A stretch of DNA of 64,000 nt from an uncultured Collinsella sp. (GCA_900542315.1 UQMV01000006.1:4211-68210); one strand, 5' to 3'. Positions 1,139-49,320 are shown, counted from the stretch's first letter. Program-made: numbers and translations. The notes: generated by a model not told the origin, from the sequence alone.

Positions 1139-1199
1139 CATGTCGCGCGTGGGATAGAACACATGCGAGAGAAAAACGCGGCTATTCGCTGCCCGCTGT

Positions 1200-2210: not shown

Positions 2211-2262
2211 GGGGCCTCCTGCTGCTTTCGGGTGGTTAACAGATTAACCGAGATTGTAGCGC

Positions 2263-2463
2263 ATGCGCGATGCCGTAATGGGTCGCTTCGAAGTCGTTTT
2301 GTCGCGCTCGGTCTGCACCTTGGATAAGAAGGAGTTCGTCGAGCACTCCGATCCGGAGCACACGCGCGCCAACATCCCGCTGTTCCAGCAGGGCATCATG
2401 ATACAGCAGCTCAACTCCGAGAAGCTCGTGGTCGAGATCATGGTGAAGTTCTGCGGCCAGTAA
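2263..2463 (+). CDS. hypothetical small protein (66 aa)
   Basis: ORF with GC3-rich codon usage, divergent from the LacI gene; no recognisable domain. Confidence 0.3.
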   Translation: MRDAVMGRFEVVLSRSVCTLDKKEFVEHSDPEHTRANIPLFQQGIMIQQLNSEKLVVEIMVKFCGQ

Positions 2464-2553
2464 TTACTGCATCACATATTCTGTTGTCACCTGGGAGGCT
2501 CGCTTTTGCGGGCCTCTTTGCGTTGCTATGGAGCCCTGGTCTGTCGATAAACA

Positions 2554-2587
2554 AAGCGCCCGCTTGCTGGGGGAGCAAGCGGGCGCC
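2554..2587. terminator. bidirectional terminator hairpin between convergent genes
   Basis: Palindrome gcgcccgcttgct-ggggg-agcaagcgggcgc between the 2263-2463 ORF (+) and pknB (-). Confidence 0.5.
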
Positions 2588-2638
2588 TGTGAGCGAATAT
2601 GTTTGCGGCGAAAGCCGCGATGAGCGGTGGGGTGGCGA

Positions 2639-4615
2639 CTAGTTGGTCGTACCGGAATCGTCGCCCGTGCTCGTGCCCGAGCCCGAGCCCGAACCAGAAA
2701 GTGCGACCGTCAGCGTAATCGTGCTGTCGGTGGACTGCTTTCCAGTGGGGGAGACGCCCGTAACGGTGGCATCCTCGTTACCGCTTACGGGATTGCCGTT
2801 CTGGTCACAGAAGCCAATGTTATAGAAACCGGCGTTGTTGAGCGCGGTAACGGCGGCGGAAATGCTCTTGCCGTACAGGTTGCCCGGGACGGTGGCCTTG
2901 CCGGACTTCTTGGCGATGACGACGGTAATCGTGGCGCCGGGCTTCTGCTTGCCGCTGGGGTTCCAGCTAATCACGGTGCCCTCGGTAACCGAGTCGTTCT
3001 CCTGGTAGCTCACGTCGACGCCAAAGCCTGCCATATCGAGGGCGTTGCGCGCCTGGGCCTCGGTCATGTCGGTCAGGTCGGGGACGGACGTGGTATCCGG
3101 GCCGCTCGAGACCTTGTACGAGATGGTCGTGCCCTTCTCGACTTCCTTACCGGCTTCGGTGCCCTGATCAAAGACCTGGCCCTCATCGGCCTCGTTGGCC
3201 TCCTCGGAGGCGCTGCCCTTCAGGCCAACGCTTGCCAGCGCGGCTTCGGCCTGGTCCTTGGTCAGGCCGACAAGCTGGGGAACCTCAACCTTCTCGGAGG
3301 GCTTGGGGCCCTTGGAGATTACCAGGTTCACCTTGGTGCCCTTGGCCTTCTTGGTGTTGCCGTTGGGCGTCTGCTCGGCGACCTTGCCCTCGTCGACATC
3401 GTCGTTGTAGCTTTGGTCGATGGTGCCGAGCTCGAGGCCGGCTTCCTTGATCAGCTCGACGGCAGTCTGCTGATCCTTGCCCAGCACGTCGGGCACGGTG
3501 ACCTGCTCGCCGCCAAAGAGCCCTGTGGCAATGGCCACCACGATGCCGATGACGGCAACGGCTGCCACCACGGCGGCGATGATCTTGTTCTTGTTGGATT
3601 TGGGCTTTTCGACCTCGTAGGAGCCGGTGGAGCCCGAAACCGAGCTGCGGGCGGTATTCTGGCCGCTCACGCCCGAGACGGGACGCACCATGGCGCGCGT
3701 CTGATCGGAAAGTTCGCGAGTCTTGGTGGCGCCCAGTTCACCGGGGGCGCCGATGATGCGCGTGGGCTCCGAGATGTTGACGGTATGGCCCGACAGGTAG
3801 CTGTTGAGCACCTGACGCAGCTCGTCGGCGGTTTGGAAGCGGTTTGCCGGGTCCTTCTCCATGCACTTGAGGATGATGCGCTCAAGGTCGGCGTCGACAC
3901 CGGAGTTGATCTGGCTCGGCGGAACAGGCAGCTCGTTGACCTGCTTGAGTGCGACCGAGATAGCGTCGTCACCGTCAAAGGGAACGCGGCCGGTGGCGCA
4001 CTCGTACATCACGACGCCCAGCGAGTAGATATCCGAGGTGGGGCCGAGGTCCTGACCGCGGGTCTGCTCGGGGCTGACGTAGTGGGCGGTTCCCAGCACG
4101 TTGTTGTCTTGCGTGAGGTGGCTGTTCTTGGCGCGCGCGATGCCAAAGTCCATGACCTTGATGTTGCCGTCGGGCAGCACCATGATGTTCTGCGGCTTGA
4201 TGTCGCGGTGGATGATCTCGTGCTTGTGGGCGACCGAGAGTGCAGAGCTAATCTGCGAGCCGATCTGGGCGACCTTCTTGGGGTCGAGGGCGCCGTGGCT
4301 CTTGATACCGCTCTTAAGGTCGGTGCCGCGCAGGTACTCCATGACGATGTAATAGGTGTCGCCGTCCTTGCCCCAATCGTAGACGCCCACGATATAGGGG
4401 GAGGAGAGACCGGCTGCTGCCTGGGCCTCCTGCTTAAAGCGTGCGGCGAAGGTTGCGTCGCCAGCATACTGCGGCAGCATGATCTTGACGGCTACCGTGC
4501 GGTTGAGGACCTGGTCCTGTGCACGATAGACGGTCGCCATGCCGCCTGTCCCCACCTTATCCTTGAGGAGGTATCTTCCCCCGAGGACCCTCTGTTCCAT
4601 TCCTGCTCCTAACAT
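2639..4615 (-). CDS. pknB: Ser/Thr protein kinase PknB with four C-terminal PASTA repeats
   Basis: Hanks kinase motifs (GxGGMATVY, VAVK, HRDIKPQN, DFG, SPE), a single TM segment, and repeated PASTA-like modules. It is the last gene of the conserved fhaA-fhaB-pstP-rodA-pbpA-pknB cluster. Confidence 0.9.
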   Translation of the reverse strand: MLGAGMEQRVLGGRYLLKDKVGTGGMATVYRAQDQVLNRTVAVKIMLPQYAGDATFAARFKQEAQAAAGLSSPYIVGVYDWGKDGDTYYIVMEYLRGTDLKSGIKSHGALDPKKVAQIGSQISSALSVAHKHEIIHRDIKPQNIMVLPDGNIKVMDFGIARAKNSHLTQDNNVLGTAHYVSPEQTRGQDLGPTSDIYSLGVVMYECATGRVPFDGDDAISVALKQVNELPVPPSQINSGVDADLERIILKCMEKDPANRFQTADELRQVLNSYLSGHTVNISEPTRIIGAPGELGATKTRELSDQTRAMVRPVSGVSGQNTARSSVSGSTGSYEVEKPKSNKNKIIAAVVAAVAVIGIVVAIATGLFGGEQVTVPDVLGKDQQTAVELIKEAGLELGTIDQSYNDDVDEGKVAEQTPNGNTKKAKGTKVNLVISKGPKPSEKVEVPQLVGLTKDQAEAALASVGLKGSASEEANEADEGQVFDQGTEAGKEVEKGTTISYKVSSGPDTTSVPDLTDMTEAQARNALDMAGFGVDVSYQENDSVTEGTVISWNPSGKQKPGATITVVIAKKSGKATVPGNLYGKSISAAVTALNNAGFYNIGFCDQNGNPVSGNEDATVTGVSPTGKQSTDSTITLTVALSGSGSGSGTSTGDDSGTTN

Positions 4616-23982: not shown

Positions 23983-24893
23983 AACGCATGCGGCCCGGTG
24001 GCACTCAGACAAAGCGCGGCGCCGCGGTGCGCATACGACGCCGACTGGGCTTGGCGTCGCGGGCGTACGCACTGCTATCGTGCTCGCTGGTGCTGGTCAT
24101 AGCTGGCGTTTCTGCCTATGGCATGACCGTGCCGTCCATGATGCAGGCGCATGCCGCACGCGAACCGCGCGTGGGGCATGAGGTCAAAAGCGATCTGGGC
24201 ACCACGACTGGATATGCTTGGGCAAGTGTGGTCGGGCATATTGTGTTTGGCACCGACGATGCGGACGGCGCCGAGGCCCCGGACAACGAAGTCACGCTTG
24301 CCAATGGCAAAACCATCGTGCTCACCAACACCAAGATCATCGATCGATTGTCCAACAATAGCGTGGCGGCAACGGTGAATAAGGTCGAGCAGCAAAAGGA
24401 GCAGGACGCCCAGCAGTCCGGAAAGCCCGGTAGCTCGGATACTTCTGGCTCCGGCTCGGATTCATCGAGTTCGGGCGGCGGCTCTGGGTCGGGTTCCTCT
24501 ACCGGAGGGCCTGGAAACGGCGGCTCGACGGGCGGCAACACTGACAACGATGCAAACTCCGGCGGCCTTTCCGCTGCTGAGGAAGAGAGCATTCACAGTT
24601 GGCTTGTGACCAAGTACAACATGCTCGACGGCTATGTTTCTCGTGCCAATGACGTGGTCTCGACCTATAACTCTACGGGAGATCCCAGGCCGTGCGACAG
24701 CCTGGTCGGGGAGATGTTTGTCATTCGAGCCGAGTTCGGTCGTCAGACATTCTCGCCCCGGTCAAGGTGGTATCAGCAGTATGCCAATCTGTGGGGCTGT
24801 TACACCAACCTATGTCAATGGGTCGGCCATTACGGCGATGATGACGTCGCGCTCGGTAACTTCAACAATAACGTGGCGGCGCTTGCCCTATGA
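23983..24893 (+). CDS. secreted or membrane-anchored protein with a Gly/Ser-rich linker, unknown function
   Basis: A signal/TM segment and a GS-rich low-complexity region. Its stop overlaps the downstream kinase start (ATGA). The called ORF begins upstream at 23895. Confidence 0.45.
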
Positions 24894-26308
24894 TGACCGA
24901 TCTTGCATCCACCACACCACAATCGCTCGGTCGCGATCCCATGGTCGGCCTGCGCCTGGCGCGTGTCGACGGGTTTGAGCCGGCCATTGCGCTCGGTCAG
25001 GACGAACTGCCTGCCTATCTGCGTCGTTTTACGATACTGTTTGCCGACGATGCCACCATGTGCCGTGGCGGTATCGGCCGCGTGACGCGTGCTGTCAACG
25101 CCCAAGGCGAGGACGTTGCACTCAAACAGCTCATCTTGCCGACGCGCGATGAGTTTGACGACGATGCCGCCCATGAGTCGCTGGTCGCCAAGTTCAAAGC
25201 GGCATTTCGCGAGGAATATGAATGCCATCGCGCCCTTTCGGGCCTTAAGGGCTTTCCCCGCCTCTATGGCTGGGGCGAGGTTGACGGTGTGCCTGCAATT
25301 GTCATGGAATGGGTCGAGGGCGAGACGCTCGCCCGCTTGCGCTCGCGACTCGCCGTGGACGATGCCGGACGCCTATCGCCGCTTGTGGCGGCGCGTCTGG
25401 GTCGCGACCTGTTCGATCTGCTCTGCCGTATGAGCCTGGTGGGCGAGGGCTTTGTCCATCGCGATATCTCGCCCGCTAATATTATGGTGCGCACGGCGCG
25501 TCTACCGCTTGACCGGCAGCTTGCCGAGGGCACCTTTGACCTGTGCCTGATCGACTTTGGCTCATCGCTGGCGCTTGAGCCAGCGTCGGCCGTGGCCGGT
25601 ACCGGCGGCAAGGCATCCTTTACCGAGCGTTATGCCACGCTGCGTCGCGCGACGGTTGCCTATGCCCCGCCCGAGATGCTCACCGACGATATTCCCGACC
25701 TGCGTGCTTTGCGTATGTCGCCGGCGATTGACGTCTATGCCGCGGCAAGCACGGTTTACGAGCTCATTGCCGGCGTCGCGCCATACGAAGCCGCGCCGAG
25801 CACTTCGGGCGCCTCGGGTTCGCGCAAAAGGACGCGCGACATCGCGAGCCCCTACCGTCTTAAGATGGACACGCGGCCCGACTATCCCATTGGTGCCCAT
25901 GCGCCCGGCTGCGATTTGACTCAACTGCTTCGTCGTGAGCCCGATGTGGCGCTCGCCGCGGCCGAGCAGGCCCAGCAGCTAGGGCTTGAGCCGGATTCCG
26001 AAGAGCTACGTGATGCGCTGGCGTTTGTCGATGCCCAGCTGTTCGACGTGGTGATGGCCTGTCTGTCCAGCCATCAAAAAGATCGTCCCGAGCCGGCGGC
26101 GGTCGAGGCGGCGCTCTCGGCGTTTTGTGACCACTATGCGCAAAATGTCGGTCGTTCGCTCCGCGGCGAGCCGCTCACGCCGTGCCCCATGGATGCGTCT
26201 GGCCGCGCGGTTCGTCGCGCGCTGATGGTCGGCGCGACGGTCGTCTGTGGCGTGGTTTGGGCTGTGTCGTGGTTTCGGCCGCGCTGCTGGCGTCGGGCGC
26301 TCGCGTGA
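24890..26308 (+). CDS. atypical Ser/Thr protein kinase (third Hanks kinase in the window)
   Basis: Kinase motifs with substitutions: Gly-loop CRGGIGRV, VALKQL, HRDISPANIM, DFGSS, APPE. Confidence 0.75.
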   Translation: MMTDLASTTPQSLGRDPMVGLRLARVDGFEPAIALGQDELPAYLRRFTILFADDATMCRGGIGRVTRAVNAQGEDVALKQLILPTRDEFDDDAAHESLVAKFKAAFREEYECHRALSGLKGFPRLYGWGEVDGVPAIVMEWVEGETLARLRSRLAVDDAGRLSPLVAARLGRDLFDLLCRMSLVGEGFVHRDISPANIMVRTARLPLDRQLAEGTFDLCLIDFGSSLALEPASAVAGTGGKASFTERYATLRRATVAYAPPEMLTDDIPDLRALRMSPAIDVYAAASTVYELIAGVAPYEAAPSTSGASGSRKRTRDIASPYRLKMDTRPDYPIGAHAPGCDLTQLLRREPDVALAAAEQAQQLGLEPDSEELRDALAFVDAQLFDVVMACLSSHQKDRPEPAAVEAALSAFCDHYAQNVGRSLRGEPLTPCPMDASGRAVRRALMVGATVVCGVVWAVSWFRPRCWRRALA

Positions 26309-26799
26309 CGGCGACTTTGGGATCGCTCGTGTGGTCTGGGTCGCTACCGGGTATTATTGCCGCACTGGCGTTGGCGCTGCCAGGCATAGCCGGCGTTGCC
26401 GCGGGGGCACTTGCGCGCGATCGGCGCTCGGGCTTCCTGCAGGGTGTGCTTGCGCTTTCTGCCTGCGAGGTTCCGGTGCTGGTTGTGGCTGCATGTAGCG
26501 TATTTTCCCAACGCGCCGTGATGGGCGGCCTTGTTGCCGCTCTGGTTGCAACCTATACGCTTACGTGGTTTTTGCTTGCTTTGCCTTTGAACTTCCCGTT
26601 TCGGCACCGCGACGCACAAAAGCCCAGATGGCGACTCCGCTTGCCGGTGGAGCCGCAGCTGCCTGTACTTTTGGCGGACCTGTCGAAGTATCGTCTGATT
26701 CTATTTCTACGACCAAGGAGGCCTAGGTCATGGCATCTCAAGTTGAGCTCACCCCATGCGGGGCCATGTTTGACATCTTTAAGCGCGCGGCGCATCTGA
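26305..26799 (+). CDS. hypothetical polytopic membrane protein (or frameshifted membrane tail of the upstream kinase)
   Basis: A GTG at 26305 overlaps the kinase stop (GTGA); the product has ~4 TM helices. An alternative reading is a +1 frameshift of the kinase. Confidence 0.35.
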   Translation: MTATLGSLVWSGSLPGIIAALALALPGIAGVAAGALARDRRSGFLQGVLALSACEVPVLVVAACSVFSQRAVMGGLVAALVATYTLTWFLLALPLNFPFRHRDAQKPRWRLRLPVEPQLPVLLADLSKYRLILFLRPRRPRSWHLKLSSPHAGPCLTSLSARRI

Positions 26800-27667
26800 G
26801 CCATATCGAGCTGTGCGGCTTGGTGCTTTCGTCCCGTCCGCTCGCCGACGGCCGCAGCCCGCAGAGCCGAGCCGCCGATCGCTCCTGGGTCTCGCGCTTT
26901 ATCGTTCGCGCGCCGGTCGGCACGCTTCAGCAGCGCCACTTTGCCGAATACGGTACCTCGGCTGCGCGTATTATGTCGCAACTGGCCCTGCGCCAGCGCA
27001 ATCCCATGGACTCCACGGCTGTGATCAATATGGTGTGCGGTTCTGCAGGTGAACCGATGGTACGCGCGCTCGAAGAGTGCCACCAGGACACGAATCTCTA
27101 TCGCAACGCGCTCGATCGCCTGTCCCAGGCGGCGGAACTCATGCCCGCCGAGCGCGCCGAGGCCGTGCTGGTGCTGTTTGTCGCCGTCGGTTGTTCGGCG
27201 GATGTGCGGTCCTCGGTGAACTATGCCATCGACTATGCGCACGCGACCTGTGGCGGAGGCACATCCACGCCGCGTTCGCTTGGCATGTCGATGACCGCGG
27301 GCGAACGCGAGCCCGCGCCGGCGCATCCGTTGGGCCTGCTGCGCGTGCAAAACGGCTTTGTGGTGAGTGCCCCGCGCTGGATTCAGCCGAGTGAGCAGGG
27401 TGTTGAGATTGGCGCGCTGGCCACTGGTGAGGGCGATATTACCGACGTCGGCGATGATGTCTCGGCTCGCCATGCCCACATCTAGTGCGATGCTCAAAAT
27501 ATCTGGCACGTCGAGGACTTGTCGTCCACCAACGGAACCGTGGTGGTAAACGGGGCCACGCGCGTTTGCATTCAGGTCGAGCCCGGCCGTTCCGCCCAGC
27601 TCAATCCCGGCGACGAGCTCAAGCTCGGCGAATCCACTACCTATGCCATCCTCTTCGGTGCCCTCTA
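26730..27667 (+). pseudogene. FHA-domain protein gene interrupted by an in-frame amber codon inside the FHA domain
   Basis: GGAGG RBS and ATG at 26730. The frame reads through TAG at 27483-27485, where the paralogous copy at 34210 has TGG (Trp). Downstream, the FHA motifs (DLSSTNGTVVNG...LKLG) continue in frame to 27667. Confidence 0.6.
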
Positions 27668-27790
27668 GCCGGCAGTTAGGGACGTTCCTTTTCTGCCGGC
27701 ACTTGGGGACACTCCTCGGCGCGCCAGAGCCAGTCGCCTGGGGATGGAGAGGCCATTTTGGCCCTTGGCGGTCAGTCGGGGCGAAACTAG
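27240..27790. repeat. direct repeat copy 1 (~550 bp, ~88% identical to 33985-34525), bounding the low-GC island
   Basis: Manual alignment of the FHA 3' coding portion plus ~120 bp downstream. Copy 1 has a 9-nt in-frame insertion and the amber codon. Confidence 0.8.
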
Positions 27791-28010
27791 AAGATCTTTC
27801 CGATTCGCGGCTGTTCATGCTTGTAGAGCATCTAAAACAATAGGATGTTATTCTGGAATATGCCGGGTGCGTGAACTTGCCTGTCTTAGCCTTAATAAGG
27901 TATAGGGGAGTTTGGCTCAGGGGTTCCGTCTTGTTCTTCAGCGCAGTATTGTGGGACAGATTTGCTGAGATTGGCGCCTTACACCGCAGGGCGCACGGAA
28001 GGCTCTCGAT

Positions 28011-28620
28011 TTGTGTTCTGGCCCCAGAATACAGGGCCTGATACTTACCAACTGTGGCATGGATGTAACATCTGTAGAAATCAACCCTTTTGTTGTCGAC
28101 CTTTGTAAGAAAAACACTGCCATCAACTCTTTGGATGACGAAACTAGGGTGCTTGAGGGGAGCCTTTACTCCCCTCTGAGAGATGACTCATGTTTTTCGC
28201 TTGTCGTTGTGAATCCTCCGTTACTGCCGATTCCGGATGAGATTCCTTATCCCTTCGTTTGAGATGGAGGACAATCGGGTCTGGATAAAACACTTCGTAT
28301 TCTTAAGGGTGGCGATACGCATTTAGAGAAAAACGGTAAATACTGCTAATAGGGGTGACGACGATGGTGCAGGGGCGACCCGCGATGCTCTCATCAATAC
28401 GTCGGATACTTGGGAAATCAGGTCTAGATGCATGTATGATGATGCTGTGTGGCTATTCAATTAATCCGCGTTCCGAATGGGTGCAGGGTATAGCTGCGAC
28501 ATCGTATGCTTTTGACCCGGCGCGATACTCAGATATTTCTGAGGCGGTTGACGAAGTTTATACGCACTATGCCGCGCAAGGCGTTTCGGAAGTTTGCACA
28601 TCTACGTTACGGGCTTAGGT
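28011..28620 (+). pseudogene. HemK/PrmC-like SAM-dependent methyltransferase remnant (frameshifted and truncated)
   Basis: Fragments FSLVVVNPP...DGGQSGLDKTLRIL are split over two frames, with no intact N-terminus. Confidence 0.45.
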
Positions 28621-28743
28621 TTCTTCAAGCGAGCAGGCCGGTTGCGTTATTTCGAGCGATTTTTCTAGTCTAGACGACAAAAGGCAAAGGATTTGATGGG
28701 TATAAAACGCGGACGTTTGTGGGCGGATGCTCAAATCTATTGT

Positions 28744-28787
28744 GGCAATCGGGCGGTTGAAAAAGATATTTCAACCGCCCGATTGCC
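28744..28787. promoter_or_regulatory. perfect 19-bp inverted repeat with a 6-nt loop upstream of the ABC exporter gene
   Basis: ggcaatcgggcggttgaaa-aagata-tttcaaccgcccgattgcc. Confidence 0.5.
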
Positions 28788-28933
28788 AGGTTCGTCGGAG
28801 GAGATGTCCGATTCCGACTCTCTTGTAGGAAGAGCTTGAGATCGTATTGGCCCAAGGCAATCTTAAAGCAGTCTCATTGGCAAATCTTCGCTCCTGTTGT
28901 GTTGAGGTGTAAGGTATCAGTGATTGATGTTTT

Positions 28934-30586
28934 GTGGCGGGTAGATTGGGGCCTTCCTTGATTCGATGCGTTCTCTCGAGGTTCATCAGAGCAAAAGGGG
29001 CTTTCGTCTTCATTGCTATCACGGTGATTGGAACCGCTCTCTCCTATGCCATGCCATACGTGAACGGGAAATTCTTAGATTTTCTTCTCGGTAACCGCAG
29101 CGAAAGAGACGCCGTACTCTTCGCGCTCCTGGTTGCGTCAATAGGAGTTTTCTCCACCCTCTTTACTTATTTTGCAGGAACACTTTCCATTCGCATAACC
29201 ACGAGACTTTCCTTTGATCTTCTCAGGGAGGCCGTCTTGCGTTTTGAAAGAGACGATTACTTGGTGAGTCGGACCATCGATCCAGCCTATACAACGCAAC
29301 GGATTATTTCCGACTCCAGCGTGGTCTCATCCTTCGTTTTGGCGAATTTTATCAGTGCGCCGCTGTCCATTGTAGCCATTCCCATCGTATTGCTTATCAT
29401 ATGGTCAATTGATTCAACTCTCGCGGTGTTTTCCATCATTCTCCTCATCGTGTATTTCTGTGTAATTACTGGGTTGAGGAAACTTTTGTATAGGGTCACG
29501 TATGAGAAGAAAGAGGCGGACAGCGCCTTTTACGCCGCAATTGCATCGCAGCTTAATCAGATTCTCAACATTCAACTGACATCTTCGTACGGCAAGAGCG
29601 AACAAGCGCTCGACGCTGGGTTTAAGAGCTATTTTCCCAAAGTTTTGCGCTCCGGAAAGCTATCATATTCTCTGACATCGCTCGATGGTCTTTTCGCAGC
29701 GTTGTTTCAAGCGGTGATACTTGTTGTTTCCGGAGTACGAATCATTAACGGAACTATGTCAATAGGCGAGTACACTATCATCGGTACATACTTCGCGGTT
29801 CTCTTTAAGACTTTGAAAAGTATGATGTCATTGTTCAAATCCTATCAAGATGCCAAAGCATCATGGGATAGGACGGCTATCGCGACGAGAGAAAAGGAGA
29901 GATCGGGGTGGAATCGGACCGATTTAGCTAAACTCGATGAAATAAATGACATTTCGGTATCTGATTTGGAATTCTCGGTTGCCCTTCCAGACGGATCTGT
30001 CCGAGAGGTCCTCGGCGGGTTTTCTTTCAAGTTTTCCGGTCCTGGTACATATTGCATAGTTGGGGAAAACGGAAGAGGCAAGACGTCACTTCTTTACTTG
30101 ATGCTCGGGCTATACTCATCGAAAGGCAAAGTAAAATACAACGGCGTGCCAATCGAAGAATGCGACTTGGATTACATACGTGCGAGAGAGATATCGTGCT
30201 GCCCACAGTCGTGCTTCGCGCCGGACGAAACGGTGAAAGAGCTGTTAGAGTATTTCGACACGCCCTTTTCTTCCTATCACCGGGGTGTAGATGGCCTACT
30301 TTCGCTGGAAAACAGCGTGAAGGAGTTGCTCGGGAAACGTTGCTCCGCGCTTTCGGGCGGTGAGCTGCGCCGAGTGTACTTATGGTCGGCGATTTCACGC
30401 AAGTCGTCAGTTTTGGTACTCGACGAGCCCACGACTGGGTTAGACGCTGTAAGCCGCGCCGAGCTTGCGGCCTATGTTAAGCGCAACAAGCAAAGCCAGC
30501 TGATCATCGTTGTCTCTCACGATGACGAGATGGTCGGCGCGGTAGAAGGGGTAGTGGATTTAGGCAGCATGTACCAGGGTAAATGA
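28934..30586 (+). CDS. ABC exporter, fused transmembrane and ATP-binding domains (peptide-exporter type, no C39 domain)
   Basis: Six N-terminal TM helices; Walker A GENGRGKT, signature LSGGELRR, Walker B VLVLDEPT; GTG start; AT-rich codon usage like the rest of the island. Confidence 0.85.
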   Translation: MAGRLGPSLIRCVLSRFIRAKGAFVFIAITVIGTALSYAMPYVNGKFLDFLLGNRSERDAVLFALLVASIGVFSTLFTYFAGTLSIRITTRLSFDLLREAVLRFERDDYLVSRTIDPAYTTQRIISDSSVVSSFVLANFISAPLSIVAIPIVLLIIWSIDSTLAVFSIILLIVYFCVITGLRKLLYRVTYEKKEADSAFYAAIASQLNQILNIQLTSSYGKSEQALDAGFKSYFPKVLRSGKLSYSLTSLDGLFAALFQAVILVVSGVRIINGTMSIGEYTIIGTYFAVLFKTLKSMMSLFKSYQDAKASWDRTAIATREKERSGWNRTDLAKLDEINDISVSDLEFSVALPDGSVREVLGGFSFKFSGPGTYCIVGENGRGKTSLLYLMLGLYSSKGKVKYNGVPIEECDLDYIRAREISCCPQSCFAPDETVKELLEYFDTPFSSYHRGVDGLLSLENSVKELLGKRCSALSGGELRRVYLWSAISRKSSVLVLDEPTTGLDAVSRAELAAYVKRNKQSQLIIVVSHDDEMVGAVEGVVDLGSMYQGK

Positions 30587-31179
30587 TGACAAGTGTAGTG
30601 CTACCCAACTGGCAGAGATAACAAAAAGGCGATGCAGATGCACGTAGCATTCAGGCGGTTCGGACTCGGTGCCTTCACGCCATCGCAACGCTTTCAGATA
30701 TAGTTCTCGTTCTCTTACTAAAGGAAACTTTAGTCTACGTCATCTTGTCGAGACAGAGGTGAAGCGAAGTGTTGTCGCGACGTATCTTATTCCAGGTGGC
30801 TCAGTATCAGCGTGAGAATCGCACCAAAGTGTACTTACGATTCTCGTGTCCCACGGACAACATGAGCTGAGCATTGAGGTTCCACCCTTTGCTGCAACTA
30901 CACGGGGTTGGACGGCAATGAATATGCCGGGCCGCATACCACGCGCAGCGGGGGTCCATGTCCCAGTATGTTGCCTACAGCAGCCTCGATGTCCACGCAC
31001 ACATCATCTCTGCCTTCGCGTTCAATCCATTTGCCGGAGAGTGCGAGGGTTGCCAGGCCGTAGAATTCGAGCCGAACAAATGAAATGCGGTATCAGCGCA
31101 TAGGATTAAACTGACGATTGCTTTGCACTGAGAATACGCTTGGAAAGCCGCTATGGGTGGCGGCCCGGGTTAAATAGAG

Positions 31180-31220
31180 AAGCCCGTCCGATCACTTTCA
31201 TGTGGCGAACGGTCGGGCTT
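31180..31220 (-). terminator. hairpin terminator candidate downstream of the peptide genes
   Basis: aagcccgtccg...cggtcgggctt stem with a T-containing tail on the minus strand. Confidence 0.35.
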
Positions 31221-31286
31221 CTTATTCCACTTGCCAATGCTCGGCTCATATTGGAAGAAAGCTACGCTAATGTTTGCGTGACACTC

Positions 31287-31394
31287 CTATTTTCTCCGAA
31301 GAAAGAGTCGGATAATGAAGAATAGAATTAAAAAAGGTGCCAGATATAACGCAAGTATAAAGGCTAATCCAACGAGACCTTGCAATAATGGCAT
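31287..31394 (-). CDS. 35-aa hydrophobic single-TM peptide (MPLLQGLVGLAFILALYLAPFLILFFIIRLFLRRK)
   Basis: ATG preceded by a GGGAGG RBS at optimal spacing. It sits just downstream of precursor gene B and is shorter than the ORF-track cutoff. Confidence 0.3.
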   Translation of the reverse strand: MPLLQGLVGLAFILALYLAPFLILFFIIRLFLRRK

Positions 31395-31472
31395 AACTCC
31401 TCCCAGACACGAGATTTTGGTATTTGTTCCCATCTTATTCTGAATTGGACCAAATAGTTCCTAGCCACAAAA

Positions 31473-31652
31473 CTACTCGTCAACTGGATCGCACCAATCT
31501 GCTGGCAAAACACAGCTTGATTCTTTATCGACATAGCACCAATCCGCAACAGGGCACTCGGCGATGTCGTAAAAATTGCATATATCAACTCCAAGACAAC
31601 AAGGCTCAACGGGAGGATGTTCATTTGAACCAACAGGATGGATATGCTTCAT
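31473..31652 (-). CDS. RiPP precursor peptide B (59 aa): MKHIHPVGSNEHPPVEPCCLGVDICNFYDIAECPVADWCYVDKESSCVLPADWCDPVDE
   Basis: ATG with an AAGGTGAGGAG RBS and seven Cys. It shares the MKHIHP N-terminus and core motifs with peptide A, and its frame is not in the ORF track. Confidence 0.55.
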   Translation of the reverse strand: MKHIHPVGSNEHPPVEPCCLGVDICNFYDIAECPVADWCYVDKESSCVLPADWCDPVDE

Positions 31653-31682
31653 AACAGCTCCTCACCTTAATCCAATTAGAGA

Positions 31683-31886
31683 CTACGTTTGATCAATGCC
31701 ACAGTGATCTACAACGCAGATGCTGCCGCCATCCATGTCATAGTCGCAGTAATCGTATGCACCACAGCCATCTGCTTTATCATAAACAGTACAGATGTCA
31801 GTAATGCCCAAGAGGCAGTCAAAAGACATCGGCTTCACGCCTGCCTCGTCGCCACTTCCTGGATTAATCGGATGAATATGCTTCAC
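31683..31886 (-). CDS. RiPP precursor peptide A (67 aa): VKHIHPINPGSGDEAGVKPMSFDCLLGITDICTVYDKADGCGAYDYCDYDMDGGSICVVDHCGIDQT
   Basis: GTG start 7 nt after an AAAGGGAGG RBS; six Cys and eleven Asp in the C-terminal 48 aa; lies immediately downstream of the rSAM gene. Confidence 0.55.
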   Translation of the reverse strand: MKHIHPINPGSGDEAGVKPMSFDCLLGITDICTVYDKADGCGAYDYCDYDMDGGSICVVDHCGIDQT

Positions 31887-32055
31887 GACTACCTCCCTTT
31901 GAGTGCAGAAAAACCTCAATATTGTGTATAACAAACCAAGATGTCTAGTTCACCATATTTCTAGAATGGTTTCGGCGAACGTAGCAATAAGCTTCGCAGA
32001 CGGTAATCAGAAGAACGAACACCTCCACAATGGTGACAGCAATGCGCTGAACCGC

Positions 32056-33444
32056 TTATTCCGATACAGTAGCTTCTCGTTGATTTTTCTCCTGCGAAGA
32101 TGAGTGGCGGGAAATAAGGTCAAAAGCCATCTCGTAGCACATCTTTCTATATTCACATGATGCAGGGTGTAGACTCTTGGGCAAGTAGCCGTGCTCGTCT
32201 GCAGCCTCCCAGCTACAGCCCCCACCACAGAAAGACCGAGCCCAACAGTCCGTACAGTCAATTCTTTTTTCGACACTCTGACTCCAGTTTTCAATATACC
32301 TAGTTTCGTCAATTCCGGTGACGATGTTGCCCATTTTGAATCGCATCATCCCGACAAACCTGTGACAGGGGTATACGTCCCCTTCGGGAGTCACGGAAAT
32401 AAAACGCCTGCCAGCCCCGCATCCGACAAAGGCGATCCTGTTGCTCATAATCAAATCAACTGCAGTTTTCAATGTTCTAAACAAGGGCTTTTCCCCTTGA
32501 TCAATCTGTTTGAGATATTGATCCGCCAAATCTATTAGGCCCGCCCTGATTTTGTTTAATGAGTGTTCGTCGAGTTTGATATTCTCATCGAATGAGCTCA
32601 CGGGCGAGAAGTAAATCCTTCTGAAGCCCATCTCTTTAAACTGAAGATAGTCTTCAACAAGGTTACAGTTATTATTTGTTAAGGTCGCTCTTGCGCCGAA
32701 GGGGAACGACTCGGAAAAACGACGAACGTTTTTGTCGATATCGGAGAAAGAGCCGCCTCCCGTCTTGTACGGGCGCGATGCATCGTGCTTGCATCCTGTA
32801 CCATCGAGACTAATCAGAACAGAAAACCCGTGCTCCTTGAAAGAATTCACAGCAGTGTCATTCAAAAGCGTTCCGTTGGTCGTAATAGAATAGGTAAAGT
32901 TTCTATTGGGGTATATTCTTTTTGAATAGTCGACCGTTTTCCATATCAGCGGCTCGTTAATCATGGGTTCCCCACCAAAAAAGACGATCGCAAGCGTTTC
33001 GTTTTCCGATGAACTTGCGACGAGGTAGTCGACCGCCTTGAAGGCTATCTCGTCTGTCATCAGCAGAGGAGACGTTCCATAATCTCCTTTACCGGCAAAA
33101 CAGTAACTACAACCAAGGTTGCATGCATGTGAAACGTGGAGTTCGATGGATCTAAGTTTTCGAGGCGTGTCTTTTGTTAAGAAAGTCCGCTCAGACAATC
33201 GTTGATACTCATCAATGTCGTCTTCAAGTTCTGCTATGGTCGTTTGGTCGTAGCCTTTCGCAGCAAGTGACTTTGTTAGCAACTTCGAGTTGACCGTTCT
33301 TCCCGATGCTTCAAATATGCGAAGCGCATCTTCTGATGCTTGGTCAACCTGAAAGCAATTGCGAGTGACCTCATCGAAGCAGTAACGACGATCACTTACT
33401 GAGAAAAAATGCATACGTTCCTCAATTTCATGCTGGACTGGCAC
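32056..33444 (-). CDS. radical SAM enzyme with a C-terminal SPASM domain (peptide-modifying maturase, anSME/QhpD-like)
   Basis: CNLGCSYC (CX3CX2C) near the N-terminus; C-terminal Cys clusters (CGAG...PCHRF, CTDCWARSFCGGGCSW); GTG start. Confidence 0.85.
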   Translation of the reverse strand: MPVQHEIEERMHFFSVSDRRYCFDEVTRNCFQVDQASEDALRIFEASGRTVNSKLLTKSLAAKGYDQTTIAELEDDIDEYQRLSERTFLTKDTPRKLRSIELHVSHACNLGCSYCFAGKGDYGTSPLLMTDEIAFKAVDYLVASSSENETLAIVFFGGEPMINEPLIWKTVDYSKRIYPNRNFTYSITTNGTLLNDTAVNSFKEHGFSVLISLDGTGCKHDASRPYKTGGGSFSDIDKNVRRFSESFPFGARATLTNNNCNLVEDYLQFKEMGFRRIYFSPVSSFDENIKLDEHSLNKIRAGLIDLADQYLKQIDQGEKPLFRTLKTAVDLIMSNRIAFVGCGAGRRFISVTPEGDVYPCHRFVGMMRFKMGNIVTGIDETRYIENWSQSVEKRIDCTDCWARSFCGGGCSWEAADEHGYLPKSLHPASCEYRKMCYEMAFDLISRHSSSQEKNQREATVSE

Positions 33445-33930
33445 TAACCTTGTTTATTGTTGCGCAGCTATAAAAAACCACCAGCGGGGATTCGGTGTGC
33501 GGCCCAATCGGACTCCCAAAAGGTTCTATTTGAGACTGGCAAGCTTTGTGTTGTTGGCACTTCGACAGCGCTCTTTATTCCAACATGGAGCCTCGCAGTT
33601 TGAGTCGACTTGCCTCTGGAAGGTCCGATCTTAACTTGATTTAGGATGAAAACAGATTACAGGCGCGCTCCTCTAGAAAGAAAGGAAACCAATCGCCGCC
33701 TTTCACCAGGAAAGTTTTTATAGCCCACCTCGAGCAAAATGAAAGATGCGAGAGCGATTGGGGAACAACGCGAATCTCCCCTTTTGGGTGGGAGCGAGCC
33801 TTCAGCCACCGGCGAACGACTCGCCCTGGTCAGAATCTGGAAGTGGTGCCGGGCCGCTTGGGCCTCCCCGGTGACTTCGTGGGGCTTACCTGCCTGACGT
33901 CGAGGAGTACATCCGCAAGATTCGTTCCCT

Positions 33931-34404
33931 ATGCCGTTTGCTCTCACGCCCGCCTTAGTTTCAAGTCGGGCGAGCCGCCGCGCTCATGCGACCCGTGGCG
34001 GCGACACGTCGACGCCGCGCTCGCTGAGCACATCTTCGGTCGCGGGCGAGCACGAGGTCGCGCCGGCGCATCCGCTGGGACTGCTGTGCGTGCAAAACGG
34101 CTACGTGGTGAGCGTCCCGCGCTGGATTCAGCCGAGTGAGGAAGGCGTTGAGATCGGCGCGCTGGCAACGGGGGAGGGCGGCATCACCGACGACGTCTCG
34201 GCCCGCCATGCCCATATCTGGTGCGACGAGTCTGGCGCATGGTTTGTCGAGGACCTGTCGTCCACTAACGGCACCGTGGTGGTAAACGGGGCCACGAGTG
34301 TGTGTATTCAAGTAGAGCCCGGCTGCTCCGCCCAGCTCGACCCCGGCGACGAGCTCAAACTCGGCGAATCCACCACCTACGCCATCCTGCTCGGCGCCCT
34401 CTAG
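33931..34404 (+). CDS. FHA-domain ORF, a 3' paralogous copy with an intact FHA domain and a novel short N-terminus
   Basis: Homologous to 26730-27667 from HATRGGDTSTPRSL onward, with Trp where copy 1 has the amber codon. Its first ~18 codons derive from island-side sequence. Confidence 0.45.
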   Translation: MPFALTPALVSSRASRRAHATRGGDTSTPRSLSTSSVAGEHEVAPAHPLGLLCVQNGYVVSVPRWIQPSEEGVEIGALATGEGGITDDVSARHAHIWCDESGAWFVEDLSSTNGTVVVNGATSVCIQVEPGCSAQLDPGDELKLGESTTYAILLGAL

Positions 34405-34525
34405 CCGGCAGTTAGGGACGTTCCTTTCCTGCCGGTACTTGGGGACACTCCTTGGCGCGTCAGAGCCAGTCGTCCGGGGATGGAGGGACCATTCTGGCCT
34501 TTGGCGGTCACCCGAGGTAAACCTT
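33985..34525. repeat. direct repeat copy 2 (partner of 27240-27790)
   Basis: See copy 1. Confidence 0.8.
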
Positions 34526-34855
34526 TACCGCCCGCCTATATTTGTCGAAATTACACTTAACGGCGGGGTACAATAAACCCGCATGCGGATTTCCGTTGCG
34601 GGCGCTTCCCATCGCCGGGGCGTGCCCGGGAGCATCCGGCATGCGGCCTTTGCGGCGCTCGGTCATGTGCAAGACGGGTAGCTGGGCCTGTGGAGCGCGT
34701 GCAGCTCTCCTCGCCTCGGCATGCCTTCTCTCCACGCCATGTACCTGCCGCTGAGTCCGCCTGTCAGATGATCGGAAGCAACAACGAAAATCCCATCACG
34801 CCAACATCCCGGCGATCGCCGGGGCCTGTATACCTATATGAGAGGAGAGGGGTAT

Positions 34856-38395
<3,540 letters not shown>

Positions 38396-38406: not shown

Positions 38407-38529
38407 CAGGATCTGAGGGCCAACCTTCGCGGACGTCCTCGGACATGAAAGAACCCCCGCTGCGCACTACGTGCGGCGGGGGTTCTTTCGTCCTGCGGAG
38501 TGTCCGCGAAGGTTGGCCCTCAGATCCTG
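38407..38529. repeat. ~120-bp compound palindrome immediately after PFOR, including a terminator-like inner hairpin
   Basis: Perfect 28-bp arms caggatctgagggccaaccttcgcggac / gtccgcgaaggttggccctcagatcctg flank an inner GC hairpin at 38447-38489. Confidence 0.7.
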
Positions 38530-38591
38530 CTACGACTACGTTCTCGGATTGTGTGGGCGGATGAAGGGCGTAGTTGGTCGGGTATTCCGTC

Positions 38592-38705
38592 CCCTTCGCT
38601 GTTTCGCGGCTTTGCCGCGAAACCTCGCGTTACTTTGGGGATGGATGGGGGCGTGGTTGTTGCGGCTTCTTATCCCTTTGCTTTTTCGCGGCTTTGCCGC
38701 GAAAC
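38592..38705. repeat. two copies of a 32-bp direct repeat, each holding a perfect 10-bp-stem hairpin (gtttcgcggc-ttt-gccgcgaaac)
   Basis: Copies at 38592-38623 and 38674-38705 differ at two positions. Confidence 0.6.
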
Positions 38706-38765
38706 GCGCAGCACCTTGGGAAATGCATTGATGCGTGGGCGGGGCTGGATTGCGGATTCAAATGG

Positions 38766-40127
38766 CTAGAGAGATATGGGTGCGAACGAGAAATCGTTAT
38801 TGGGGTCATCCTTTTCCATAAACTCATCGAGACAAAACGTCATGTAGATTGGAACGTACAGAACCTTGCCCTCTTTGCTGAGATTCTCGTGGCTCAGTAC
38901 AACGGCCTCGGGAATTTTGTACTCGCCCACACTCATCAGACGATCGAGGGCCGCATGCGCTCGAACTTTCTTGCCCGATTTGACCTCGATTGGGACAACA
39001 TGCCCGTGGGCGCCTTCGATCACAAAGTCAACTTCACCGACCTCACGCGTTTGGTAGTACCATGCATCCGCCCCGAGGGCAACGAGTTCCTGCGCGACCA
39101 CGTTCTCATAGAGACCACCAAGGTTGGGAGTTTTCATATCAAGATAGACAGCGCGTGCAGTGCTACCGGGGTATCGCGATGCGAGCATGCCTGTATCAGA
39201 CTCGTATAGTTTGAAGGCTGTCGTTTTCTCCGTCCTCTTGAGAGGACTCCGTGGCTCCGTCACCCTGGCGACCATCAATCCAACACCTGCGTTAACAAGC
39301 CACAGGAAATCCTGCTCATATTTTTTAAGGCGAGCTCCCTCACCCAGAGACGAAACAACAAAGCGATGAGACTCCGCCTCAAGCTGAACGGGAATTTGCT
39401 CAAAAATCGACCGAACGTTAAACGCTCGAGTCGATGCGTATTTTGAGATATCGCTTTTGTACTGATCGACCAGCTGAGTTTGAAGCTCACGTGTGCTCAC
39501 GAGCGAATAACCCGAATCAATATAATTCTGAACGACCTCCGGCATGCCGCCGCAAACGATATAAGCTCTATAGTTCTTGAGCATCGCCTCATGAATATAG
39601 TTTTCGACAGGATGTTTCTCGACAAGGCAGCTGCGAATGCCTGCAAGCACATTCTCGCTGACGCTGTTTGCCCAACAAAACTCTTCAAAATCCATCGGGC
39701 GCATAACAATGTGCTCTACATACCCCACCGGAAAAGAAGAGATCCCCTTAAACTCAGTCCCAAGCATAGACCCCGAGAAGACATAGCTAAAGCGCCCATC
39801 CTCGACCAACGCCTTCATGAGTGTAACGATCTGCGGATACTCCTGAATCTCATCGACAAAGACAAGCGTATCGCCCTCAACAAGCGGCGCATCCGCAAGA
39901 AGGGCTACGCGGTTGATAAAGTCAACGGAGTTCTTTGCGCCAACAAGTGCATTCCTTGCTTCGACATCGAGTAGTAAATTGACCTCAAAATACGAAGCGT
40001 AGTTGCTTTTTCCAAACGCGCGAATCGCATAGCTCTTGCCAATCTGACGCGCACCAGTAACGAGTAGTGCCTTATTGGAGTTATTCTTCCAGCTCAAAAG
40101 CCTATCAGTGACCTTACGGCGTAGCAT
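38766..40127 (-). CDS. AAA-superfamily ATPase with a DUF4143-type C-terminal domain
   Basis: Walker A LLVTGARQIGKS; Walker B VFVDEIQ. Sits in a lower-GC segment. The ORF-track start at 40229 reads through the upstream repeats; the likely start is Met35, which has a GGGGG RBS. Confidence 0.7.
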   Translation of the reverse strand: MLRRKVTDRLLSWKNNSNKALLVTGARQIGKSYAIRAFGKSNYASYFEVNLLLDVEARNALVGAKNSVDFINRVALLADAPLVEGDTLVFVDEIQEYPQIVTLMKALVEDGRFSYVFSGSMLGTEFKGISSFPVGYVEHIVMRPMDFEEFCWANSVSENVLAGIRSCLVEKHPVENYIHEAMLKNYRAYIVCGGMPEVVQNYIDSGYSLVSTRELQTQLVDQYKSDISKYASTRAFNVRSIFEQIPVQLEAESHRFVVSSLGEGARLKKYEQDFLWLVNAGVGLMVARVTEPRSPLKRTEKTTAFKLYESDTGMLASRYPGSTARAVYLDMKTPNLGGLYENVVAQELVALGADAWYYQTREVGEVDFVIEGAHGHVVPIEVKSGKKVRAHAALDRLMSVGEYKIPEAVVLSHENLSKEGKVLYVPIYMTFCLDEFMEKDDPNNDFSFAPISL

Positions 40128-40140
40128 TAAACCCCCAAAT

Positions 40141-40240
40141 GACAAAAATTGACAGATAGAATCGCCTAAAATCATACAAAAATTGGCAGATAATAACGTC
40201 GTAAATATACAAAAATTAGGAGATAGCAAAGGTTCGAATA
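40141..40240. repeat. three tandem ~33-bp repeats with core ACAAAAATTGRCAGATA upstream of the ATPase gene
   Basis: Units gacaaaaattgacagatagaatcgcctaaaatcat / acaaaaattggcagataataacgtcgtaaatat / acaaaaattaggagatagcaaaggttcgaatagg. Confidence 0.6.
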
Positions 40241-40368
40241 GGCCTCAAGGCCACTGAAACAGTGCTCTACTTTGCGAAGGGGCTGGGGACGCTGTTGGGT
40301 GCGTCTCCAGCCCTCTGATACTTACTTTGGATTCCGATGGTGGGGTGTTGGCGGTGCTGCTTGCTTGG

Positions 40369-42980: not shown

Positions 42981-43153
42981 ATTCACCTAGTCATTGGAAC
43001 CCGGCACTTAGGGACGTTCCTTTCCTGTCGGCAGCTTGGGACAGTCCTTAATAGCCATTGGGGACGTTCTTAAACGACTAGTCAAACAACAACGTTCACA
43101 ACGACTACTCATTTAAGTCTGTCCCCAATGACTGCCCAATGGCTGGGAAGGCG
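42973..43153. repeat. dispersed composite repeat element, copy C
   Basis: The GGCACTTRGGGACGTTCC tandem module and the CATTGGGGACGTTCTTAAA...TTTAAGTCTGTCCCCAATGA palindromic module also occur at 48841-49320, 27668-27730 and 34404-34466. Confidence 0.65.
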
Positions 43154-48854: not shown

Positions 48855-49320
48855 GCTATTTACCTAGTCCCCGATGAGACCCTCATTCTGTGGGTAGTCA
48901 TTGGGGACGTTCTTAAAAAGACTAGTCATTTAAGTCTGTCCCCAATGACTGCGGAAACCCGGCACTTGGGGACGTTCCTTTTCTGCTGGCAGCTTGGAAC
49001 AGTCCTTAAAGCCCGCATCAATCAACTGCGGAAAGCGCATCCCAGAATGAGCGTCCAACATGGGGTGCGGTTTCCCTTGAGGCCCTCAATCGGAAAATGC
49101 ATCCCGGATTATTGTCGAAAAGCGGTCCCTAGTTTCCCAAACGGGCCGCTAACGGAAAGCGCACCCCGCTATTGGGCCCCAAAGCAGGATGCGCTTTCCG
49201 TGCTGGCAGTTCCAAGCAGTTCGGGATGGCCCTTTTCGTCTGCTCTCGGCCGGCGTCCGTAAGACTGTCCCCGACGACCACTCATTTAAGTCTGTCCCCA
49301 ATGAGTGCCCAATGACTAGT
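48841..49320. repeat. dispersed composite repeat element, copy D, with an embedded GGAAAGCGCATCCC array (49005-49200)
   Basis: Carries the same modules as copy C in opposite order, plus about five units of ctgcggaaagcgcatcccagaat-like repeats in both orientations, and terminal copies of CATTTAAGTCTGTCCCCAATGA. Confidence 0.65.

Follow-up and report, generated by a model that had tools for sequence, protein, structure and literature searches.

Campbell-type integration, in which circular DNA carrying a segment of host homology enters the chromosome through a single crossover, is familiar from suicide and integrative plasmids and from RecA-dependent translocatable units, which re-insert next to a shared repeat. 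A second point of comparison is provided by the minimal mobile elements described in Neisseria (Saunders & Snyder 2002, as used in PMC1797815), and a third, which concerns cargo, by the peptide maturase PapB, which joins Cys residues to Asp or Glu within CX3D motifs and accepts spacings of n = 0-6 (PMC9413430). Here, we analyze a small island, or islet, of low G+C content (GC) in a 64,000-nucleotide stretch of DNA from an uncultured Collinsella sp. (GCA_900542315.1, UQMV01000006.1:4211-68210). We call the whole of this stretch the window, and coordinates refer to it unless a locus is named. The island lies between two direct repeats of the 3′ end of an FHA-domain gene, and no description of it was found in the literature searched. 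Our analysis argues that the island, which has no recombinase of its own, is probably moved by recombination alone, with a step of the Campbell type.

Results

The island and its flanking repeats

A sequence-only reading of the locus had described direct repeats that flank the island and cover the FHA-coding part of the gene plus ~120 bp downstream, and alignment placed them at 27237-27788 (copy 1, R1) and 33982-34524 (copy 2, R2). Their identity had been put at ~88%, a value that holds for the 3′ half only (87%); over the full length, both BLAST and a column count gave ~82%. In the column alignment, 346 of 432 columns were identical in the coding part (80%, with a 9-nt indel included) and 104 of 120 in the non-coding tail (87%). 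Given the length and identity of the repeats, a likeness by chance is ruled out. The longest perfect run between them is 32 nt, ends at 27691, and is located at the stop codon and a unit resembling repetitive extragenic palindromes (REP-like unit), away from the junction. Copy 1 consists of native codons 170-312 and the 120-nt tail on the plus strand and, as the sequence-only reading had stated, is joined to the native 5′ part of the gene, in an open reading frame (ORF) at 26730-27668 that is preceded by an AAGGAGG ribosome-binding site. The low-GC island itself occupies 6,193 bp (27789-33981), as delimited by the GC profile, by its absence from related loci and by alignment of the junctions. 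GC is 44-53% between the repeats versus 60-66% in the flanks, and the island as a whole has ~46% GC in a 63%-GC genome. Copy 2, also on the plus strand, is followed by a conserved right flank (34525-38395, plus strand), in which a 313-nt leader region precedes the gene for pyruvate:ferredoxin oxidoreductase (PFOR, 34838-38395).

To establish how the site looks in relatives, we surveyed the best 80 loci, each from a different GTDB species representative; the window falls in the Collinsella aerofaciens group. About 35 of the 80 loci are empty and run from the kinase gene through a single FHA gene and the 313-nt leader to PFOR. The island is present in 37, and its left end is complete in 31 of these. 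Because the island-free relatives have the kinase-FHA-PFOR order, the block is an insertion, and the duplicated gene end moves with it. The single gene end of the empty sites matches copy 1 at 94-96% identity and copy 2 at ~80%, and in all carriers copy 1 is the native allele, which we call type 1, along its full length. Two FHA copies without the island, the arrangement that the sequence-only reading had named as evidence against itself, were seen in none of the loci surveyed, and the diverged clades also have a single FHA gene.

Gene content was the same in all 37 carriers. Among 31 carriers, the median pairwise identity was 99.65-99.86% for the island versus 97.3-98.4% for the adjacent host genes. 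Flank identity was no higher among carriers than among empty-site genomes, and the leader region varied more among carriers (93%). The near-identity of the island between diverged flanks thus fits recent horizontal spread, with crossovers close to the island. The alternative contents found at the FHA-PFOR intergenic site were no insert, the island in two variants, and an insertion sequence (IS) of the IS110 family.

Origin and mosaic structure of copy 2

Copy 2 contains an ORF of 157 aa (33931-34404, plus strand) that has no recognisable ribosome-binding site and is found on at least 1000 contigs. In agreement with the sequence-only reading, it encodes an intact FHA domain (Pfam FHA, 37.8 bits against a cut-off of 20.7, E = 2.7e-9, model positions 17-67 aligned) behind a short N-terminus, the first 17 residues being island sequence. 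Homology to the FHA gene begins mid-gene, at codon 170. A tblastn search with the 170 native N-terminal residues against 33.3-34.45 kb revealed no remnant of the missing part; copy 2 is therefore not a diverged full-length gene. The GC-rich 280-bp spacer that separates the island's gene cassette from copy 2 (33700-33981) is seen in the island context only and has no similarity to the FHA N-terminal part.

Searches with the copy-2 protein returned Collinsella-type FHA proteins only, some of them products of full-length genes that belong to diverged allele classes. In two such loci, L094 and L096, the native 3′ end is 93% identical to copy 2 and only 83-84% identical to copy 1; relative to the window, these contigs are 83-86% identical in the kinase gene, 87% in the FHA N-terminal part and ~98% in PFOR. 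These relationships indicate that copy 2 is a 3′ fragment (codons 170-312 plus tail) of an ortholog from another Collinsella allele class.

The fragment is not uniform along its length. Its first third is constant across carriers, being 94-100% identical to that of the window in carriers without a 35-bp deletion at the start of copy 2 (L020, L035 and L039 have this deletion) and ~96-97% identical to L094. The other two thirds belong, depending on the genome, to the class of L094/L096 (T2), to that of L095 (T3) or to type 1, and the 3′ part often matches an allele class other than that of the resident copy 1. Intragenomic conversion from the resident copy 1 alone was considered as the source of this mosaic and rejected, as several genomes match a non-resident class. 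Within R1 of the window, a 52-nt patch (27311-27362, plus strand) has 10 of 10 window-specific differences from the type-1 consensus in common with the window's copy 2, which indicates gene conversion from its own copy 2. Among copy-2 variants (P0016-P0033, P0024), the 35-bp start deletion or read-through from 33646 supplies N-termini that give proteins of 161-164 aa and 257 aa, and the FHA frame is open in most variants and frameshifted in a few.

The ~120-nt tail likewise varies among the empty sites, where at least three unrelated allelic forms occur: short, hairpin-type, and long as in the window. The long form is present in 14 of 35 empty sites, and short or hairpin tails are present in the other 21. 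These forms bear on the possibility that the two copies are old tandem FHA paralogs, between which the island was inserted, and that the island-free genomes arose by deletion between the paralogs. Direct repeats can indeed delete the DNA between them, and the long-tail empty sites L014, L051 and L085 match a deletion with a crossover in the distal tail. The short and hairpin tails, however, are unrelated to the long form and cannot be deletion products. Furthermore, no genome has two copies but no island, copy 2 lacks the N-terminal part and starts at codon 170, its 93% match is to the orthologous allele of another clade and not to an old paralog, and the diverged clades do not have a second gene either. 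We therefore regard an origin from paralogs as improbable in the extreme.

Junctions, the dispersed hairpin and site-specific integration

At the left junction, copy 1 runs through GGTCAGTCGGGGCGAAAC and low-GC DNA begins abruptly with TAGAAGATC; at the right junction, the island is followed directly by codon 170 in copy 2. In its native form, the sequence is GGTCA(GTCGGGG or CCCGAGG)TAAACCTTTACCGCC. The junction-proximal ends of the two repeats differ, GTCGGGGCGAAAC versus CCCGAGGTAAACC (GTCGGGG versus CCCGAGG), and do not form an identical core. A variant island in L069 and L034, which is 96-99% identical, is without the left 880 bp, and a hairpin-type tail is joined to it at window position ~28672. 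Its right junction with copy 2 is the same as in the window, which marks the island-to-copy-2 joint as a conserved, older feature.

Directly after the stop codon of copy 1 lies the REP-like dispersed hairpin unit, which is of the GGGGACGTTCC type and ~50 nt long (27669-27720, plus strand; GCCGGCAG..CTGCCGGC, GGGACGTTCC / GGGACACTCC). Its consensus is CCGGCAnTTAGGGACGTTCCTTTyCTGCCGGCA..GGGACAnTCC, and it has no Rfam match. Further copies at 34405-34456, ~43000-43075 and ~48900-48990, in intergenic positions, bring the number in the window to at least four. The sequence-only reading held that both repeats end in this element and that it may be the actual recombination substrate. In fact, the duplication runs ~70 nt past the unit, which was consequently rejected as a repeat boundary or crossover site. 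The hairpin after the stop codon is also where, in several genomes, an IS110-family IS is inserted (~1.65 kb, with a 375-aa DEDD-type transposase). Copies were found at ~10963-12619 in L067, ~10963-12600 in L027, ~14876-16530 in L089 and 1-~155 in L002, and their contexts include empty sites, the position after copy 2 and, in L002, that next to the island.

The structure of the junctions also bears on site-specific integration, to which the sequence-only reading had attributed the repeats in the first place. According to this explanation, a tyrosine or serine recombinase would have used the 3′ end of the FHA gene as its target, leaving the repeats as attachment sites (attL and attR) with an island-borne gene end, and the integrase would since have been lost or would act in trans. 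The position at a gene 3′ end, the direct repeats, the GC contrast and the absence from relatives are all in line with it. However, the gene-proximal copy is native and not island-borne, the diverged copy being the distal one; repeats of ~82% identity without an identical core at the junction ends are not what attachment sites look like; copy 2 is a mosaic of host alleles; and related cassettes elsewhere are without att-like repeats. The observation that no integrase remains was borne out by Pfam and NCBIfam scans of the island ORFs, which detected no recombinase or integrase domain, and neither a recombinase gene nor a remnant of one was found in the 37 carriers or in either island variant. 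Three of the four features that define integrase/att insertion are thus absent, and only the unoccupied target site in relatives is present. We consider site-specific integration very unlikely. The other possibility that the sequence-only reading had allowed, a recombination-mediated insertion, is favoured by the native copy 1 and the mosaic copy 2.

Two further searches concerned the target and the vehicle. A tRNA scan of the 64-kb window found none, and there is therefore neither a tRNA target nor a suppressor tRNA in it. The island had no BLAST match in plasmid and phage collections, nor did a scan of viral contigs with its radical S-adenosylmethionine (radical-SAM) protein yield one, and a vector was not identified.

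Contigs with exchanged or circle-type junctions

We scanned metagenomes for gene ends other than type 1 that have the left end of the island about one tail length further on, and obtained four contigs. One of them, L103, has a window-like structure in which the last ~40 nt of coding sequence and ~110 nt of tail are swapped reciprocally between R1 and R2. In the window, R1 is wholly resident and R2 wholly imported, whereas in L103 R1 has an imported 3′ end and tail and R2 has resident ones. The patterns in L103 are 1, then 15 times 2, then six times 1 for R1, and 112, then 13 times 1, then six times 2 for R2, so that this single contig is the exact reciprocal of the window at 15 of 16 swappable diagnostic sites. 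At the right boundary of the swap, the shared identity is just 10 nt. A k-mer artefact is unlikely to have produced the swap, because an identity of this length is too short, and gene conversion could hardly have done so, because conversion erases one of the two variants. Judging from its sequence, L103 would be the expected outcome if a circle with one repeat came in through a single homologous crossover at another position, or left at one point and re-entered at another.

In two other contigs, L104 and L102, the order is island-right, copy 2, hybrid tail, island-left. L102 (6,665 bp) represents one complete cycle of the unit, broken at 28743-28788, where a repeat search found a perfect inverted repeat of 20 nt, its arms 6 nt apart, upstream of the island's transporter gene. 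The order of segments in both contigs would fit an excised circle or a tandem array.

We propose the following course of events. The islet is linked on its right to a foreign FHA fragment of ~0.5 kb, extending from codon 170 to ~120 nt past the stop codon, which would act as a built-in homology arm. Island and fragment together would enter the 3′ end of the resident FHA gene through a single homologous crossover of the RecA type. This crossover would duplicate the homologous segment as direct repeats that bracket the island, and its position would set how each copy is divided between resident and imported sequence. The repeats could then recombine again, either with excision to a circle or, through unequal exchange, with formation of a tandem array. 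In addition, flanking double crossovers, together with conversion of one copy by the other, would move and remodel the islet among Collinsella lineages. Of these elements, the circular intermediate, the dependence on RecA and the original capture event are inferred.

The same arrangements could also stem from one ancient insertion, illegitimate or homology-facilitated illegitimate, after which only double-crossover exchange in the flanks and gene conversion would have taken place, with no circle and no Campbell-type step. The homologous anchor would then lie in copy 2, in the leader region or in PFOR, and the illegitimate joint at the tail end. Such a history agrees with the abrupt left junction, which is without clear homology, and with the second, different left junction in L069 and L034; the mosaic copy 2 and the copy-1 patch show that conversion and homologous recombination are active, one arrangement is common to 21 of 22 carriers, and the circle-like contigs could be assembly artefacts. 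It does not readily account for the reciprocal swap in L103, for two independent junction contigs with a hybrid tail, or for copy-2 3′ parts that match non-resident classes, as expected from a crossover inside the repeat. On this evidence, we think a single insertion without a Campbell-type step rather unlikely.

Several points nevertheless weigh against recombination-only mobility with a Campbell-type step, the reading that we prefer. First, L102 and L104 are contigs from short-read metagenomes, in which coverage pruning in multi-strain samples could create cycles in the assembly graph. Second, the reciprocal arrangement occurs in one contig only, and all 21 GTDB carriers in which both copies can be read are window-like. 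Third, the presumed source allele class did not yield an island carrier in a scan that kept the best (type 1) matches only. Fourth, related cassettes in L097, L098 and L100 showed no flanking direct repeats by self-BLAST. Finally, the reading does not account for how the gene fragment was first captured or where the GC-rich spacer came from, and at least one illegitimate event is needed, because there are two different left junctions, that of the window and that of L069/L034.

A more far-reaching version of the preferred reading is possible, and we put it forward tentatively. The unit may be a self-contained mobile element of a kind seldom recognised, without a recombinase, having a diverged piece of a host gene as its sole "integration module" and cycling between a chromosomal and a circular or tandem form by means of host recombination. 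Such an element might have swept dozens of species-level Collinsella lineages, leaving a record of recombination in copy 2 at each passage.

Apart from its repeats, L103 contains a mosaic operon at 1176-3530, in which the kinase gene is of a diverged class (92% identical to L094, 88% to the window) and the downstream FHA gene is of type 1 (98%). This mismatch places a recombination breakpoint between the two genes and agrees with horizontal exchange at the locus.

The amber codon and decay of the kinase-FHA operon

Translation and comparison with 80 relatives showed that the native FHA gene (26730-27668, plus strand; 312 codons in relatives) carries an in-frame amber codon. As the sequence-only reading had reported, copy 1 has TAG at 27483-27485 where copy 2 has TGG, and a 9-nt indel is visible in the alignment; the change is G to A at 27484. 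The reading had left room for a sequencing error. The same TAG is present in separately assembled contigs (ERZ1758112, ERZ1758085 and SRR2674235), and such an error can therefore be dismissed. TGG at codon 252 and an intact gene were found in 80 of 80 representative loci, with 312 codons in all but two, which have 317. Because TGG and an intact 312-aa FHA gene are present in all 37 island carriers among these representatives, the amber codon is not linked to the island. The part of copy 1 that follows TAG still matches Pfam FHA (26.5 bits against a cut-off of 20.7, model positions 31-67 aligned).

The gene upstream encodes a Hanks-type Ser/Thr kinase with a C-terminal multi-transmembrane region (24890-26729, plus strand; Pfam Pkinase, E = 1.9e-17) and is broken in the window lineage. 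Its ORF stops at 26308 (472 aa) owing to deletions of 1 nt near 26265 and 7 nt near 26577, which were located by alignment. The kinase gene is intact in at least 67 relatives (614 aa, kinase plus transmembrane region), where its stop codon abuts the ATG of the FHA gene. The 472-aa product was found again in the independent samples that have TAG. By comparison with the intact relatives, the amber codon is one of three lineage-private lesions in the kinase-FHA operon, unrelated to the island. The sequence-only claim that the FHA partner of the kinase is probably inactivated is thus upheld for the window lineage, and its attribution to the island is not; the cause is lineage-private decay that also includes the kinase frameshifts. 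Recoding of TAG, for example as pyrrolysine, was rejected, as TGG is found in every relative and kinase frameshifts occur in the same lineage. The amber codon therefore represents ordinary strain-level gene decay and not a footprint of integration.

In relatives with intact genes, one operon encodes the kinase and the FHA protein together with a 301-aa protein whose function is unknown, and this operon is decaying in the window lineage. Apparent truncated forms of the native FHA protein, of 272, 258, 268 and 251 aa, are present in public assemblies (P0052, P0184-P0196) and include a recurrent frameshift in the DLSSTNG region; the kinase cluster likewise holds many shortened forms.

Predicted cargo of the island

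The cargo of the island is best read as a predicted cassette for a ribosomally made, post-translationally modified peptide (RiPP) of the ranthipeptide-like type. A radical-SAM/SPASM peptide maturase of 452-462 aa is encoded on the minus strand (32056-33444; Pfam Radical_SAM, Fer4_12 and SPASM). It resembles PapB and SCIFF maturases, with NCBIfam scores of 273 bits for PapB (cut-off 340) and 267 bits for the SCIFF maturase (cut-off 425), both below threshold. Two precursor peptides are encoded next to it on the same strand, each with a strong Shine-Dalgarno sequence. Precursor A (31473-31652, 59 aa) has an MKHIHP leader and 7 Cys, and precursor B (31683-31886, 67 aa) has a GTG start, a VKHIHP leader and 6 Cys. 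The two have the (M/V)KHIHP leader in common and contain six Cys-Xn-Asp motifs each, among them CNFYD, CPVAD, CTVYD and CGAYD, with mixed spacing of n = 2-6. On the plus strand, a transporter gene (28934-30586; Pfam ABC_membrane and ABC_tran) encodes an ATP-binding cassette (ABC) exporter with fused permease and ATPase and no peptidase domain, and its bacteriocin-exporter-like NCBIfam matches are all below cut-off. The left part of the island holds a degraded methyltransferase gene of the HemK/MTS type (27871-28618, plus strand), whose fragments lie in three frames and were recognized by matches on an 83-aa fragment (Pfam MTS, E = 8e-5; NCBIfam HemK-like). This remnant is missing from the variant island of L069 and L034.

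Homologous cassettes, with maturases 67-73% identical, the same gene order and conserved precursors, form islands of 45-50% GC in genomes of 63-69% GC at unrelated loci (8058-12396 in L097; 10001-13779 in L098, L099 and L100). The precursors are conserved even in the distant cassettes of L097 and L100, and one of the homologous cassettes lies beside IS21 and IS110 elements. To judge from this distribution, low-GC RiPP islets may form a family in Coriobacteriia-like hosts of high GC.

Other features of the region

A second low-GC patch (45-52%, ~38500-40300) lies just 3′ of PFOR and is present in relatives with and without the island. It contains a gene for an AAA_14/DUF4143 ATPase (38766-40229, minus strand), a 487-aa ORF that is called as 453 aa in related contigs. 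An Rfam scan of 26-36 kb at E ≤ 1 gave no match, and a scan for promoters and terminators found sites no more numerous than in shuffled sequence.

Discussion

Our results indicate that a biosynthetic cassette without mobility genes can behave as a mobile element in a major genus of the human gut. The near-identity of the island, despite the 2-3% divergence of its neighbours, is likely due to the conserved piece of host gene that it carries, a substrate available to host recombination. Should the circular or tandem form prove real, island finders that seek integrases and att cores would overlook "homology-arm islets" of this sort, and the same process could explain other low-GC RiPP cassettes at varied Coriobacteriia loci. 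With its PapB-like maturase and two new Cys/Asp-rich precursors, the cassette is also a plausible source of a gut-bacterial peptide natural product.

In Campbell-type integration, as at the Collinsella locus, the homologous segment is duplicated in direct orientation on either side of the insert, a dedicated recombinase is not required, and excision or amplification can take place between the repeats. The crossover sets the breakpoint in the two copies, which are reciprocal chimeras of each other, as illustrated here by the window and by L103, the latter a single contig. Unlike the plasmid and translocatable-unit cases, the Collinsella islet is chromosomal and natural and is without a replicon, IS or plasmid backbone; its homology arm is a diverged ortholog fragment (80-87%) and not an identical copy; and its circular form is suggested by metagenome contigs only. 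Collinsella is not known to be naturally transformable.

The minimal mobile elements of Neisseria resemble the islet in being small clusters without mobility genes between conserved genes, with alternative contents at the site, and their exchange is presumed to proceed via homologous recombination in the flanks (PMC1797815). They are not described with a duplicated fragment of a flanking gene, which the Collinsella islet has. With regard to cargo, the clusters for PapB/PapA (freyrasin) and for SCIFF-type thioether peptides share a radical-SAM/SPASM maturase, for which PapB is the best match, repeated Cys-Xn-Asp motifs and an adjacent exporter (PMC9413430). The islet differs from them in that its maturase scores below the family cut-offs, it has two precursors with mixed spacing, and its chemistry is predicted from the genes.

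Integrase-encoding islands and prophages at gene 3′ ends have position, direct repeats, atypical GC and insertion polymorphism in common with the islet. In contrast to them, the islet has neither an integrase nor an identical core, the native sequence is the gene-proximal one, and the repeats are long, diverged and mosaic. What distinguishes the Collinsella islet from the known recombination systems is thus its built-in, diverged homology arm, which leaves behind a duplicated, mosaic gene end.

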